Shown here: positions 56,824-62,051 of the stretch, piece by piece
Layout of the letters: every line of letters starts with the position of its first letter
Position numbering within the stretch: the first letter of the stretch is position 1
Source: an uncultured Phycisphaerales bacterium
GTDB lineage: Bacteria > Planctomycetota > Phycisphaerae > Tepidisphaerales > Tepidisphaeraceae
DNA: 64,000 bases
Direction of reading: 5' to 3'
Assembly: GCA_963844715.1 (NCBI GenBank)
Contig: CAWJPJ010000006.1
Span: 864,001-928,000, forward strand
Notes under the pieces: model-generated
Database searches by the model: none
Seen by the model: the letters and a program-made list of their open reading frames with translations, nothing else
Told to the model about the DNA's origin: nothing
Program-made: the position numbers and the translations under genes

Positions 56824-57934
56824 ATGGATCATCTCGTTTCGCGCCGCCGCCGCCGTGGATGCCTCGGGCATCCGCAAGGTGTTCGATCTGGCCGCGAAAA
56901 TGTCCGACCCGATCAACCTTTCGATCGGGCAACCCGATTTCGACGTTCCTGAATTCGCCAAGGACGCCGCGATCGAGGCCATCCGCAAGGGGAACAATCG
57001 ATATACTCAAACTCAGGGAATCGCGCCGCTTCGCGAGCGCCTGCGCAAAGATCTCTCGGCGGAATTTTCCCACGACGTCGGAGAAGTGCTCATCACCAGC
57101 GGCGTCAGCGGCGGCTTGATGCTGGCTCTCCTGGCCACCATCGACCCGGGTGATGAGGCGATTTTCCTCGATCCTTACTTCGTCATGTACAAGCATCTGC
57201 TCACTCTGGCCGGGGGGAAGCCGGTGATCGTGGACAGCTATCCCGATTTTCGCTTTCCCGCGGAGCGCGTCGAAAAGGCGATCACCTCCAAAAGCAAGCT
57301 GTTGATCCTGAACAGCCCCAGCAATCCTACCGGCGTGGCAATGAATCAGCGCGAAATCGACGACGCTGTGCGCATCGCCAAAAAACATAATCTGCTGATC
57401 GTCTCCGATGAGATTTACGAGCCGTTTCTATACGACGCGCCGCGCGGCCTGCCGAGCGCCGGGCATTCGCATGAAAACACTTTGATTCTTCGCGGATTTT
57501 CCAAGAGCCACGGCATGACCGGATGGCGACTCGGCTATGCCGCCGGCCCGTCGGAGATCATTTCGCAGATGACCAAGCTTCAGCAGTACACATTCGTCTG
57601 TGCCCCGGCGCCGTTTCAATACGGAGCACTGAAGGCGTTGGACGTCCCGATGGAGGACGCCGTGGCCGCGTATCGCCAGAAGCGCGATTTGGTCTGCCAT
57701 CGGCTGCATCGGAAATTCGAACTGGTCGTCCCCGAGGGGGCGTTCTACGTCTTTCCGAAGGCCCCGGCCGGGATGACCGGGAGCCAGTTCGTAGCCAAGG
57801 CGATCGATAACAACGTCCTGATCATTCCGGGGAACGTCTTTTCGGAGCGTGATACCCATTTCCGAATCAGCTACGCGACGACGATGGAGAAGTTGGAGGC
57901 GGGCTGCGAAATTCTTTGCAAGCTGGCCGGGTGA
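56824..57934 (+). CDS. Class I/II PLP-dependent aminotransferase
   Basis: LSIGQPDF, NSPSNPTG, SDEIY, GFSKSHGMTGWRLGY, FRISYA; small frameshift near the start. Confidence 0.92.
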
Positions 57935-57982
57935 TCTCGCGGGTGCTCAGAACTGTCAGATTCCGCGATCAATCGGATGGAT

Positions 57983-58012
57983 TTGAAAATCCGTCCGCCA
58001 GCGCGTTAGTAT
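57983..58012 (+). promoter_or_regulatory. Putative sigma-70 promoter for the tRNA-like gene
   Basis: TTGAAA (57983-57988), 18 bp spacer, TAGTAT (58007-58012); the -35 lies inside an inverted repeat at 57974-57997. Confidence 0.5.
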
Positions 58013-58093
58013 GGCGTCGTGCGGGTCGAATCTACTTGTGAATAGTCCTGCTGACGCCAACCGGCAACGATCGCTCTTCGGGGCGAGGCGGCT

Positions 58094-58178
58094 CCGGCAG
58101 TGGCGGAACTGGCAGACGCTCTGGATTGTCAATCCAGTGATCCACAAGATCGTACGGGTTCGAATCCCGTCTCCCGGA
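58094..58178 (+). tRNA. Non-canonical tRNA: Leu-type class II body with GUC (Asp) anticodon
   Basis: Acceptor CCGGCAG/CTCCCGG (one C:C mismatch), A73; D arm GCGGAACTGGCAGACGC; anticodon arm CTGGA-TTGTCAA-TCCAG; long variable arm TGATCCACAAGATCGT; T arm ACGGG-TTCGAAT-CCCGT; no encoded CCA; followed by T6. Confidence 0.82.
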
Positions 58179-58224
58179 GCTTTTTTCGTTTGACTTATGC
58201 CAAATCCGCGTCGATAACATTGTT

Positions 58225-58278
58225 ATCTTGTGGATCACTGGATTGCAGCCCCAGATTGACACCTGGGGCTAATTTATT
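58225..58278 (+). ncRNA. Putative small antisense RNA to the upstream tRNA
   Basis: 58225-58245 is the exact reverse complement of 58130-58150. Hairpin AGCCCCAG-ATTGACAC-CTGGGGCT has a loop complementary to the anticodon loop. Candidate -35 TTGACT at 58190-58195. Confidence 0.55.
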
Positions 58279-58311
58279 GGTCACGCCTGCCCTCCGCCGT
58301 CCCCATCAAGC

Positions 58312-61300
58312 TTACTTGTCATCCCCATCGCTCAGCACTCGATCCACGGTCGTCGTAATCGTATTGAAGCTCGTCGCCGAAACTTTCGGCTGCTGAATCG
58401 TTCCGCTGACGTGGATTCTGAGCAGTTCCTGCTTGGCCCCGTAGATCAGCGGCCCGAGGACGGGAAGGCTGACCAGCGTGGGGTTATCCGTCACAAACCA
58501 GAGGCTCACTCGCTTGGCCGCGAAATCGAGCTGGCCGTTGCCGTTCATCGTCATGTCCTTGCTCTTGAGGATGATTTGATCGAAGACGACCTGTTGGCCG
58601 TCGATGGCGTAGCGCGTGGTGGCCTCGGCGAAGGGGCTGCTGAGGGGAAGGGAGAGATTGGTGATCTGGAGCAGGCCTAGGAGGATGGGGAGGTTGTACA
58701 TATTTTCGCCGGTGACGCGGACGTCGCCGTGGCCGCGGCGGCTGGTGGGATCGCCGAGGGTGCCGTCGAGATTGAGCGAGGCGGTCAGCTTGCCGCTGAC
58801 GCCCTGGTTCTCCGGGGCGGCAAGTTGCGCGACATCGGCGTCGCGAAGAACCAGGCCGAAGTCGTACCGGCCGGGCGAGGTGTCCTGATCGTTGTCGGAG
58901 TAGCTGAATTGCCCGCTCCCACTGAGATCGCCGCCGGCGAAATCGCCGCCGAAGCGCGAGATCTCGATGACCGGATCATCCGCCGGTTTGGCGATCATCG
59001 CCGAGAAATTTTGCGCAGGGCGTCCGGCCAGAAGGAGATTGTCGGCGGATAGCTGCATGCCAAGCCGGTGCAGCTTTCCGTCGCGCACCAATCCCGCGAC
59101 ATCCATCGCGCCCGTGGCGCCCGCGATGGGGAGGCCGATGTCCAGATTCGCGCCTAGAAGGCTGACCTTGGCGGCAAAGTCGATGTCCGGGCCGTGCCGC
59201 GTCCGCCGAGCCCGGACGGTAAGCCAACCGTGAGAAGTCCAAGCCGACCGAGCCGGTGAGTTTCAACGTCTTAATAATGTCGGATACCGTTTCAGGTACG
59301 GCGGCGATGGCGTCCGCGTCGAGCGGAACAGGGTCCGCGGTCAATTTCAATACCCATTCCGGATGCTCGCCGAGATCTCCTTCGCCCGTGACGGCAAGCG
59401 CCGATTTGCCGTGATGCGCGGTGATTTGCTTGAGCAACACTTTGGTCGGGGAGACGCTTAAAAGCCCATGCACGTCGTCCATCCGATATGGAAAAATCTG
59501 CGGCTTCACCGAAAGCTGAACGGGGTGAATCTGCAAATCGAGCTTTTCATCCGGGTCGGGTGCGCCGCTGAGCGCGGAGGCATATTCAACAGTCGCGTTT
59601 ATGCTTCCCTGCGGCTGGATCTCGTCCCACGCCTGTTTGGCCGGATCGGGCAACGCGGCGTACAGTGCCGGTTCCAGGGGAACATTTTCCGCGATGGCGG
59701 AAAGCATGATCCGCGGAGGCCGGGCCGACGGTTCGCCTGGCGCGGGAGCGCTCCATGCGATGGAGAGATGTCCCGCGATGTCCCCGGTGCCGCGTTTGGC
59801 GGTCATGTCCGTCAGCACGAAACTCGTCGGGGTGATTCGCATCTGGGCGCTGATCCCGGAAAGCGCGTAGGCATTTCCCAACGGCCAGAGAGCGCCATTG
59901 TGCAAATGGGCGTTGAACAGAAAATCGACGTTGGGATTGGGCGAGTTGTCCTGCACTTTGGAGGGCGTCACATTGCCTTCCACCTCGATCAACCCGGTCG
60001 CTCCCACGGCGACGAGCCAATCGCGCTCGGCGGCGGGCAGAGCGCCTTTTAATTCGTCATCGAGCGGAAGATTTCTGGCAACGACGTGCAAATTCGGCCC
60101 CACCGGCTGGGTCGTCGCCGGTCCGTGATTGGATTTCCAGGTGATCCGGCCATTGATATCGACCGACGCGGTGCCGCGGCGCATGGCGATATTCTTCAGA
60201 TCGACAAAGCGATCGTGAACTTCCAAACGGCCCGTCACGTGACTCATGGGATAAGGGAAGAAGACAAGCGTACCGGCGGCATCCTTGAGATCGACGTCAG
60301 TCGTGAAGTCGAAACGCCGGTGCTGGCCAGGCTGACGCTCGATATGGCAAACGACGTCCGCGCGGAATTGCGGGAGCGCCGCCGGTGCCGTCGGGATCGA
60401 AAAGGCGCAGCGCCCGGTCAACCTGAGGGGGCATTGCCGTGCGCAGAGCCGGCTCGCTGGCGATGTCCTTGGCGCTGACGTCCAGCCATATTCCGGCCAC
60501 TTGATCGAGGGGGCCAATGAATCCGTTGATGGTAACAGTCGAATTCGCGTTGGGGCCGTCTTTCAACCCGTAACCGGTGACGCCGAGCACGCGGATTCCG
60601 TCCATTTTCGTAAGTGGATCGTGCCCGATGAGGATTTCGCCCGTCGCGTCGCAGAGCGGATAGGGAAAGTCGGCGAATTTGAATTGCCCGTCGTGGATAT
60701 CGATCGCGCCGACCACCGCCGGGCGCGCGCCGGCTTCGCCGCGATTGAGCGTGACCGACACGCTGCACGTCCCCTGCGGATGCAGGCGCTCGTAAATCTC
60801 CTGAACCTCCGGCGGCAAAGACCCGGCGTAGGTGGGCGACCAGGCGGGGATTTCCAAATCGTGCCCCGGCATGGACGAGACCGTCAGCTTCGCCGCGGCG
60901 TCGGGGGAATAGCCGTGGATGATGCCGTCGAGATCGAACCAGTTGTTTTCAAGGCGGCCGTTGATGCCGTTGAGGGTCAGATCATCCTGAGTGAACACGA
61001 GCGTCCCGGAAACCTGCCGGAGATGCACCGGTTGCGGTGTGCTCAGGCGGCGCAGGGAATCGATGACATCCTGCGTGATCCATTGTCCGGGCTGGAGAGA
61101 GTCCAACAACGCGTGGAATTTCCGCACGTTTTCATTTTGCCGGCGGCTCATCCATTCCTCGGGGCTGACGGCCAGTTCGACGCTGCTGAGAGAAATTTCC
61201 ATGCGGAAGGAGGGTTGCTCGCCGGGCTTGCCGGGCGTGAAATACATTTCCGGCACGTCGATGCGTCCCTGGAGCTGGTGGCGTTCGCACCATTCTCGCG

Positions 61301-62051
61301 GCTCGGTGAAGAGCATCGTTTTGATGTCAGGACCGAAAGTGAAGTTGCGCAGGCGGGCAAACGAGACGCCGCCGTCGGTGCGGATGGTTCCTTCGACGCT
61401 GGGTCCGATGGATTCGCGGCCGCGGCTTTGAAACTGGAAGTCGTACTGGTCCGACTCCTCGCCGGGGGAGAGGGAGCCTTCGAGGCTGTACCAGCCGATG
61501 GTCTGGGTGTGATTGTTGCGCATCTCCAGGTAAGCGACCTGGGCGTCGCGGAGGATGATCTGGGGAAGAACGGGCGGCCCGTTGGCAGCGCTCTTGTCGT
61601 GGCGGGGAGGAACGCCTTTGCCGTGCCAAAGGCGCTGATAATTCCAGCGGTGGGTCTGGGCGTCTTCGACGAGAATGACCGTGGGTTCGATGGCGACGAT
61701 CTGCGTGCCGGAGATTTTGCCGGCCAGCAATTCGAAGGGATTGTATTTGATCAGCAGCGTCTGCGCGTGAAAGACCGTGGCGTCGGGAGTGGGCGGGCCT
61801 TCTACGCGGACGGTCACGTCGTCGAGGCGCAGCCCTTCAAAGATGGAGAGGCTAGCGCGGCGGATTTGGACGTCGCCCCCGAGGAGATCGGAAAGGTAGC
61901 TTTCCGCCATGGCGCGGACGCGTTTTGCGTCGGTGATCCAACCGTAGCCGAGGATGACGACGCACAAGCCGACCAGGACGGAGAACATGCACTTGCGGCG
62001 GATGGGGGAGCAGCGCGGCGCAGGGGTGCTTGGGCCGCCAGGTGCGGTCAA
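58312..62051 (-). CDS. Large AsmA-like / YhdP-TamB-like envelope protein (two frameshifts)
   Basis: N-terminal TM anchor, long beta-rich repeats (FPYP...TG.I), AsmA-like C-terminus (GNGQLDF...LLRIHVSGTIQQP). Pieces 60297-62051, 58976-60517, 58312-59106. Confidence 0.78.

Follow-up and report, generated by a model that had tools for sequence, protein, structure and literature searches.

A leucine-type tRNA with an aspartate anticodon and a co-varying antisense RNA: a candidate protein-free module in an uncultured Phycisphaerales bacterium

Introduction

An intergenic gap in the genome of an uncultured Phycisphaerales bacterium (NCBI GenBank assembly GCA_963844715.1) carries two adjacent RNA genes, one for a transfer RNA (tRNA) with a leucine-type body and an aspartate anticodon, and one for a small RNA that is complementary to this tRNA. 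The gap lies within 64,000 nucleotides (nt) of contig CAWJPJ010000006.1 (positions 864,001 to 928,000 of the forward strand), here called the window; coordinates are those of the window unless another contig is named. The unit of ~300 bp that holds both genes (~57983-58280) is a self-contained two-RNA module. In about 20 loci, with sequences that differ between loci, the neighboring small-RNA gene complements the variable arm and the anticodon loop of its own tRNA. This complementarity is independent of the orientation of the small-RNA gene, the loop of the small RNA follows the anticodon, and no protein partner accompanies the pair. Judged from sequence, the module probably keeps a protein-corrupting tRNA off. 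A tRNA coupled to a dedicated antisense RNA is apparently an undescribed module.

A tRNA with a leucine body and an aspartate anticodon

The tRNA is real, because it scores 51 bits in Rfam and belongs to a family with compensatory changes in 21 of the 25 cloverleaf pairs. A73 is invariant in that family (21/21 aligned tRNAs), the RF00005 threshold is passed by 13 of 18 family loci with 51-61 bits, and 20 of 27 family tRNAs combine a 7/7 acceptor stem with A73, with U at position -1 in most (counted with our own parser). The window tRNA has the anticodon loop UUGUCAA, a variable region of 17 nt and A73 at 58178. Its D arm is of the same type as those of the leucine (Leu) tRNAs of its own genome and of relatives, and its top BLAST matches at the DNA level among 60 relatives are ordinary Leu tRNAs. 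It thus has the long variable arm, the Leu-type D arm and D loop, and the A73 of a tRNA-Leu, but not a Leu anticodon (NAG or YAA). A tRNA for aspartate (Asp) is identified by a class I body, a short variable loop and G73; the 17-nt variable region and A73 of the window tRNA fit none of this, and the ordinary tRNA-Asp genes of the genome are 75-76 nt long. A normal tRNA-Asp(GUC) of 75 nt and the full set of five Leu isoacceptors are already encoded in the genome (4.55 Mb in 8 contigs, 85% complete), which makes the window tRNA an additional, identity-mismatched one.

What amino acid would this tRNA carry? The A73 discriminator is an identity element for leucyl-tRNA synthetase (LeuRS). It is established that LeuRS does not use the anticodon (a point also made in PMC11028032), so the tRNA should carry Leu to Asp codons. 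Structural predictions for the gene differ in one respect: ARAGORN calls a tRNA-Asp(gtc) of 88 nt (58093-58180) with an 8-bp acceptor stem, 8/5 rather than 7/5, whereas Rfam and the family alignment give an acceptor/T-stem geometry of 7/5. The acceptor stem has one C-C mismatch (58098/58173), and its helix runs on for 2-3 pairs into the leader and trailer (GCT/AGC, 58091-58093 / 58178-58180), directly before a run of six T. The anticodon arm is a perfect palindrome (8+1+8).

A further Asp tRNA gene lies in a tRNA array beyond the window. On contig C6 (C6:952626-956065, ~24 kb past the window end), ~24 tRNA genes are packed into 3.4 kb, among them another tRNA-Asp(GUC), a “Leu(CAG)” of 74 nt and a call whose anticodon has only two bases; this array looks like a mobile or phage-type one.

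The small RNA and its two contacts with the tRNA

The second gene lies ~45 nt downstream of the first and would be transcribed from its own near-consensus promoter into a small RNA of ~55 nt. The likely start is ~58225, the first antisense base. All elements listed in the initial annotation of this DNA were recovered with Rfam, ARAGORN, repeat and consensus scans, and inspection of the sequence. That annotation had placed a second promoter-like TTGACT at 58190; the element is there, and a -10 hexamer, GATAAC, follows exactly 17 nt on. It had also described a hairpin with a 7-nt loop complementary to the anticodon loop. The hairpin is present with its 8 bp, but its loop has 8 nt (ATTGACAC, 58255-58262), among them the Asp codon GAC. 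The resulting 8-nt complement pairs 58127-58134 on the anticodon-loop side (TGTCAATC) with 58254-58261 on the hairpin side (GATTGACA). The other contact, a 21-nt exact antisense segment, runs from C36 through A37, A38 and the 3' side of the anticodon stem into the variable arm, most of which it covers. By our own arithmetic, the chance of a 21-nt exact inverted repeat inside 500 nt is of the order of 1e-7, which, together with the comparative data across loci, excludes a chance origin of the two antisense elements, as had been argued at the outset. Cofolding of tRNA and small RNA gives -68.8 kcal/mol, vs -46.2 kcal/mol for the separate RNAs.

The small RNA has the attributes of an adjacent antisense gene with its own promoter and terminator, namely a conserved -35/-10 pair and a terminator hairpin. 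In an alignment of nine tandem modules (A1), the T-GAC of the -35 and the CGATA of the -10 are invariant and equally spaced (17 nt), and in tandem loci the antisense segment starts 6-9 nt past the -10. A T-run follows the tRNA in 8 of these 9 modules (the exception is L064) and also in L159, L242 and L243. T-runs at the 3' end of the small RNA are stronger in relatives than in the window. No Rfam family covers the small-RNA part, a weak match to Streptomyces-metK (16.5 bits, E = 2.1) being due to chance, and this downstream part is unique within the genome. A palindrome at 58213-58227 (GATAACAtTGTTATC) covers the small-RNA -10 and the first antisense bases; it is not conserved in other modules.

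A family of loci in which the two RNAs co-vary

Relatives were collected with two search patterns. Pattern 1, which required a Leu D arm and then UGUCA at positions 33-37, was applied to one genome per species and to metagenome contigs. It found 16 loci in species genomes, 9 of them with a class II tRNA(GUC), and 26 loci in metagenome contigs, 17 of them with such a tRNA, two being identical (L061 = L067). A looser pattern, with U33 and any base except A at position 35, added one tRNA with the anticodon CUC among 401 genomes of the phylum, one GCC module (L159) on a contig from a viral collection, and two UUC modules in genome G456. With the window counted, the family comprises 30 Leu-type tRNA loci with non-Leu anticodons. 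Hence the system is not specific for Asp, since versions for glutamate (Glu; CUC, UUC) and glycine (Gly; GCC) exist. All partnered anticodons found (GUC, CUC, UUC and GCC) end in C36. Both patterns fix the D arm, so the frequencies are lower bounds.

Three modules (L242, L243 and L244) occur in G456, a genome of 8.6 Mb, with the Asp anticodon GUC once and the Glu anticodon UUC twice; in L243 the 5' acceptor strand of the tRNA is disrupted and the small RNA is intact. The other four matching genomes in the order of G456 do not contain modules: one has a partnerless Leu(UAG)-like gene in which bases are altered, two have Leu genes interrupted by introns, and one match arose by chance. In that same order, the tRNA-Leu genes of L246 (genome G495) and L247 (G491) are split inside the anticodon loop, that of L247 resuming ~250 nt further on, and these interruptions are probably group I introns.

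Does the small RNA change with its tRNA? An exact complement of at least 11 nt between the anticodon-plus-variable region and the 250-nt flanks was found in 15 of 27 cognate pairs vs 7 of 702 non-cognate pairs, counts that do not amount to a formal probability because related loci are kin and the statistics overstate the support. In a duplex-energy test, seven loci including the window outscored all 26 foreign tRNAs on their own flank, although GC-rich flanks raise the background (non-cognate mean -28.8) and the signal therefore emerges only in part. Between the close relatives L042 and L078, by our reading, the duplex contains two double changes from G:C to U:A and one A to G change that gives U-G. 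The MAFFT alignment A1 is out of register over the antisense segment, and pairs were counted by script.

The hairpin loop behaves similarly. A hairpin of at least 6 bp that presents an exact complement of positions 33-37 in its loop was found in 14 of the 30 loci; of these 14, 11 have a flanking loop base that pairs with N38 and 11 have one that pairs with N32. The loop triplet matches the anticodon, with GAC for GUC, GAA for UUC and GGC for GCC. For example, in the UUC loci L242 and L243 the loops (GTGAAAA and GTGAAAG) match the reverse complement of the anticodon loop exactly, and the loop of the GCC locus L159 (TAGGCAA) pairs with positions 32-36. The CUC locus L083 has a 16-nt antisense of the anticodon stem-loop. 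Indeed, in L050, L058, L059, L061 and L083 the antisense is directed at the anticodon stem-loop itself, and the small RNAs of L061, L064 and L083 have an extra segment against the acceptor/D-arm junction. In L061 / L067, two tandem antisense units lie 3' of one tRNA(GUC), each also complementing an acceptor/D-arm segment.

Tandem modules have the order T-run, promoter, variable-arm antisense, GC-rich hairpin with the anticodon-loop complement, and T-run. In L049, L054 and L070 the small RNA is on the opposite strand and the DNA has direct repeats. The order within the opposite-strand transcripts is unchanged, from variable-arm antisense to anticodon-complement hairpin to U-run, and the loop matches at 7/7 positions in L049 and L054. 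L079 has an opposite-strand antisense of 12-13 nt against the anticodon stem-loop and no such hairpin. Because some loci have the small-RNA gene in tandem with the tRNA gene and others have it on the opposite strand, the constraint acts on RNA and not on DNA.

The initial annotation had suggested looking in homologs for an antisense segment and hairpin loop that co-vary with the anticodon and variable arm, and such co-variation is found in ~20 loci in both orientations. Its proposal of a separate, promoter-driven small RNA dedicated to the tRNA, acting by loop-loop contact and an extended duplex, is strongly supported by these comparisons. As far as sequence can tell, the co-varying relatives mean that the two-RNA module is real and not a chance repeat.

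Complementarity to the variable arm is also found upstream of the tRNA. In the window, the leader sequence CTTGTG (58035-58040) complements the variable loop CACAAG, a run of only 6 nt. Leader-to-variable-arm runs of at least 9 nt occur in 8 of 18 cognate vs 25 of 306 non-cognate pairs. A 9-10-nt complement to the variable-arm target of the small RNA is found in the leaders of L073, L078, L044, L050 and L064. The leader complement may act in cis as a second brake, or it may be what is left of a small-RNA unit that was once duplicated.

Explanations at the level of DNA

A spacer of 74 bp separates the two inverted 21-bp arms, and the anticodon arm, a palindrome (8+1+8), resembles the core site of a recombinase. 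Hence the repeat might be a feature of DNA or a relic: a fold-back, an invertible segment, the remains of an integration site, or a tRNA pseudogene in decay next to a repeat that arose by chance. Such a reading is scarcely credible. The opposite-strand loci have direct DNA repeats and unchanged RNA complementarity, which rules out any DNA-level explanation; specifically, inverted repeats at the DNA level, as an invertible segment would have, are missing from these loci. In addition, the loci keep the pairing despite their different sequences, both promoter and terminator are conserved, and there is no recombinase near the window module.

A fold-back assembly artefact had been named in advance as the finding that would overturn the module. 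A search for sequencing runs gave five DNA runs of soil metagenomes from two studies, with no RNA run among them. Logan contigs of run X3, possibly the source sample, span 58013-58185 and 58157-58307 without differences and bridge each repeat arm into unique sequence, support that is weak given the low depth of the contigs and the uncertain identity of the run. No joints were reported in the Logan contigs, which are contigs only and of low depth. A contig of run X1 stops at 58109 in adapter-like letters, and 58110-58234 is without X1 cover. The fold-back, the invertible segment and the integration-site relic were all rejected on the opposite-strand loci, the co-variation and the bridging contigs together.

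Proposed mechanism and alternative functions

What might these two RNAs do? We favor, with moderate confidence, a reading akin to an RNA-only toxin-antitoxin pair: a tRNA that accepts Leu and misreads codons for Asp, Glu or Gly would be kept silent by an antisense RNA dedicated to it. In the window, LeuRS would charge the class II tRNA, with its tRNA-Leu body, A73 and Asp anticodon GUC, with Leu, and Leu would be inserted at GAC/GAU codons. The codon-like loop of the terminator hairpin would first kiss the anticodon loop. The 5' single-stranded tail would then zip up a 21-bp duplex, unfolding the decoding half of the tRNA, so that use of the tRNA would be blocked and the tRNA probably exposed to a double-strand RNase. 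The two contacts would be successive because their target sites overlap by 5 nt (58130-58134). Joint targeting of the variable arm and the anticodon loop would spare both the real Leu tRNAs and the real Asp tRNA of the host. A stable, harmful tRNA would in this way be held in check by a strongly transcribed, presumably short-lived antisense RNA, with possible roles in addiction, abortive infection or stress response. The stability expected of a tRNA, the strong small-RNA promoter, the patchy multi-copy spread, and L243, where the tRNA is decayed and the small RNA intact, all agree with a toxin-antitoxin logic. That the modules make up a protein-free class of toxin-antitoxin or abortive-infection systems, with a tRNA as a toxin that would corrupt the entire proteome and an antisense RNA that kisses the anticodon loop and unzips the variable arm, is a more tentative suggestion.

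Several points weigh against this reading. First, that the genes are transcribed, and that the tRNA is charged with Leu, miscodes and is toxic, is inferred here, as are the half-lives of the RNAs and the biological role. Second, the amino acid on the GUC members could differ, because G34, U35 and A73 are also within the identity set of bacterial tRNA-Tyr. Third, the prolonged acceptor helix and the 8/5 call by ARAGORN make it uncertain whether the tRNA would mature to a 3' end that can be charged, and the window copy may be attenuated, with its C-C acceptor mismatch and the poor U-tail of its small RNA. Fourth, 8 to 10 of the 30 mis-anticodon tRNAs have no partner inside 220-250 nt, and the predominance of GUC is built in, since pattern 1 fixes UGUCA. 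The kinship of the loci, mentioned above, belongs here as well.

The polarity could also be the reverse, with the small RNA as the active partner that ties up the host tRNA-Asp or another target, and the tRNA-like RNA as a sponge or antidote. RNA sponges that soak up small RNAs are known, such as the 3' external transcribed spacer of a tRNA precursor, which gives the idea a precedent, and pairing by hand suggests that the small-RNA loop could form six pairs (one G-U) with the host tRNA-Asp loop CUGUCGA. Such a reversal is nonetheless improbable: compensatory changes preserve the perfect 7-bp acceptor stem, along with the invariant A73, the canonical T loop and U(-1), features that a mere sponge could do without; the broken tRNA and intact small RNA of L243 are in the usual order of toxin and antitoxin decay; and the stable partner would normally be the tRNA.

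Alternatively, the tRNA might act off the ribosome, as an aminoacyl donor elsewhere or as a structural or regulatory RNA whose level is set by the small RNA. An extended acceptor helix followed by six T is unusual for a working tRNA gene, and tRNA-like RNAs outside translation exist, such as a Bacillus cereus small RNA cited in PMC5389517. Set against this is the evidence that the anticodon matters, since the small RNA targets the anticodon loop and its own loop changes with the anticodon. The anticodon loop also retains U33, A37 and seven nucleotides, and a conserved gene nearby for a partner enzyme is absent, all of which makes a role outside translation decidedly improbable.

Locus features, context and distribution

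The features of the locus are listed in Table 1. The module-bearing gap is 377 bp long, between an aminotransferase gene and a minus-strand AsmA/DUF748-like gene. The latter (58312-62051, minus strand) is present here as at least three overlapping open reading frames (ORFs), vs a single frame of ~1170-1650 aa in relatives; the broken frame reflects either frameshifts or assembly errors. The -10 of the promoter-like site upstream of the tRNA aligns with a TATAAT in the closest relative of the module, L073, where the homology of the module starts. Comparison of the family loci found no upstream tRNA promoter conserved across subfamilies.

Table 1. Features of the two-RNA locus, in window coordinates.
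Feature	Position	Strand	Basis
Aminotransferase gene	56855-57934	+	Pfam Aminotran_1_2
tRNA promoter-like site, TTGAAA-N18-TAGTAT (putative)	57983-58012	+	Consensus scan, 9/12 matches
tRNA 5' leader, ~80 nt	58013-58093	+	Blocks in common with L073
Leader hairpin, TTCG loop	58071-58086	+	Read from sequence
Class II tRNA, Leu-type, anticodon GUC (58128-58130)	58094-58178	+	Rfam RF00005, 51 bits (gathering score 29)
T6 run, likely end of tRNA transcript	58181-58186	+	Sequence, right after extended acceptor helix
Small-RNA promoter: -35 TTGACT, 17-nt spacer, -10 GATAAC	58190-58195 (-35); 58213-58218 (-10)	+	Predicted
Small-RNA 5' end, 21-nt exact antisense of tRNA 58130-58150	58225-58245	+	Inverted repeat, 100%
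Terminator-like hairpin, 8 bp	58247-58270	+	Repeat search and terminator scan
Weak U-tail (AATTTATTGG), probable 3' end of ~55-nt small RNA	58271-58280	+	Terminator scan
AsmA/DUF748-like gene, 3' end toward gap	Stop codon begins 58312	minus	

The module is a unit of ~300 bp found in unrelated surroundings. At the syntenic site of the same-genus genome G001 the flanking genes are ~30 nt apart and the module is missing; in G002 a different insert of 1.3 kb is found and the module is missing; and in the unpublished genome G004 the site measures about 110 nt. A BLAST search of 57940-58310 against 60 relatives gave only generic Leu-tRNA matches, with the module in none of them. The window is homologous to L073 only over ~58005-58285, and this homology ends at the module edges. 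There is likewise no sign of an associated protein: tblastx of the flanks found no flanking genes shared among family loci, no Pfam family recurs in 28 flanking ORFs, and the open frames of seven modules share neither frame nor start, leaving no conserved ORF.

Of 401 genomes in the phylum, 4 contain modules, counted by their mis-anticodon tRNA, as does 1 of the 120 genomes from another order; this patchy, multi-copy distribution resembles that of selfish or defence elements. This distribution bears on a further possibility, in which the pairing is as described and its purpose is regulated, beneficial mistranslation: stress would lower the small RNA and release a controlled dose of Leu for Asp (or Glu, Gly). 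The anatomy and the co-variation fit this idea equally well, and the window module is surrounded by housekeeping genes, with no clear sign of a mobile or defence island. There are also reports of natural bacterial tRNAs whose mistranslation is deliberate (PMC10404621). It is nevertheless an unlikely explanation, given the patchiness, the missing unit at the syntenic site in congeners, and the three copies in one genome, one of them decayed, which fit selfish or defence elements better; also, Leu in place of acidic residues or Gly is among the most damaging substitutions.

A phage origin was considered and rejected, because the GUC pattern had 0 matches in viral contigs and only the L159/L227 contig pairs a tRNA with a small RNA; a pattern based on the small RNA had 30 viral matches, with a tRNA alongside in that one contig only. 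Among 80 fetched viral loci (L089-L168), 16 have tRNAs that combine a Leu-type D arm with another anticodon: Asn GUU (six), Gly GCC (two), Gly ACC, Tyr GUA (two), Ile UAU, CUA, UUA, Gln UUG and Pro UGG. Several of these odd tRNAs have an encoded CCA, and an antisense partner is found in L159 only.

Implications

What would it mean if the toxin-antitoxin reading were true? First, the module would hold the first toxin that is a tRNA and the first small RNA of bacteria with a tRNA as its target. For the field of toxin-antitoxin and defence systems it would add a protein-free module whose weapon is deliberate miscoding; for tRNA biology, a natural tRNA under direct antisense control. Second, cells or mobile elements could safely carry a “loaded” mistranslating tRNA, and the isotype-mismatched class II tRNAs of soil genomes would be explained. 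Anticodons with C36 need no special modification at position 37 to decode, and the C36 pattern would let such a tRNA work in any host. Third, the module would provide a compact (~300 bp), programmable tRNA/anti-tRNA pair with a specificity that is readable from sequence. Even if toxicity fails, the co-varying pairing of a tRNA with a small RNA is a new regulatory relationship.

Comparison with known systems

Keyword searches, in which subscription journals were not covered, found no tRNA/antisense-RNA pair in the literature. Parts of the module have counterparts. Nematode nev-tRNAs are class II, charged with Leu, and have Gly or Ile anticodons, so they are like the window tRNA in joining a class II body to a mismatched anticodon. 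Likewise, tRNAProX/ProA (PMC10404621) and allo-tRNAs (PMC5389517) combine the body identity of one amino acid with the anticodon of another. The allo-tRNAs of the latter source are Ser-type with 8/4 or 9/3 stems, whereas the window tRNA has a Leu-type D arm, A73 and 7/5 geometry (8/5 in the ARAGORN alternative). An antisense partner is reported for none of these tRNAs; the word “antisense” occurs 0 times in PMC5389517 and in a 2024 review of mistranslation (PMC11415595).

Among toxin-antitoxin systems, type I pairs such as hok/sok also use an adjacent antisense RNA with its own strong promoter, a recognition loop and a single-stranded end, and they neutralize the RNA of a harmful gene, as the module would, with a patchy, multi-copy spread. 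Their target is the mRNA of a toxic peptide, whereas here it is a tRNA; the genes do not overlap, no ORF is conserved, and no toxic-peptide ORF was found as the antisense target in seven modules. In type VIII systems (SdsR/RyeA, CreT/CreA) both partners are RNA, as here, and CreT acts through tRNA supply. To our knowledge, no tRNA toxin is among them. CreA needs Cascade proteins, whereas the module has no associated protein, and its toxicity is putative.

The proposed pairing pathway, with a loop-loop contact followed by an extended duplex, is like that of CopA/CopT and RNAI/RNAII, which control an mRNA or a primer, in replication or translation, rather than a tRNA. The tRNA anticodon loop is itself the archetype of the U-turn loop in kissing-loop antisense systems. 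Finally, T-box riboswitches, a model of which has no match here at E up to 10, also have an RNA loop that offers a codon-like triplet to an anticodon. A T-box pairs with the NCCA end and regulates a downstream gene, neither of which applies here; the module instead would use a free-standing RNA that reads the anticodon and also invades the variable arm.

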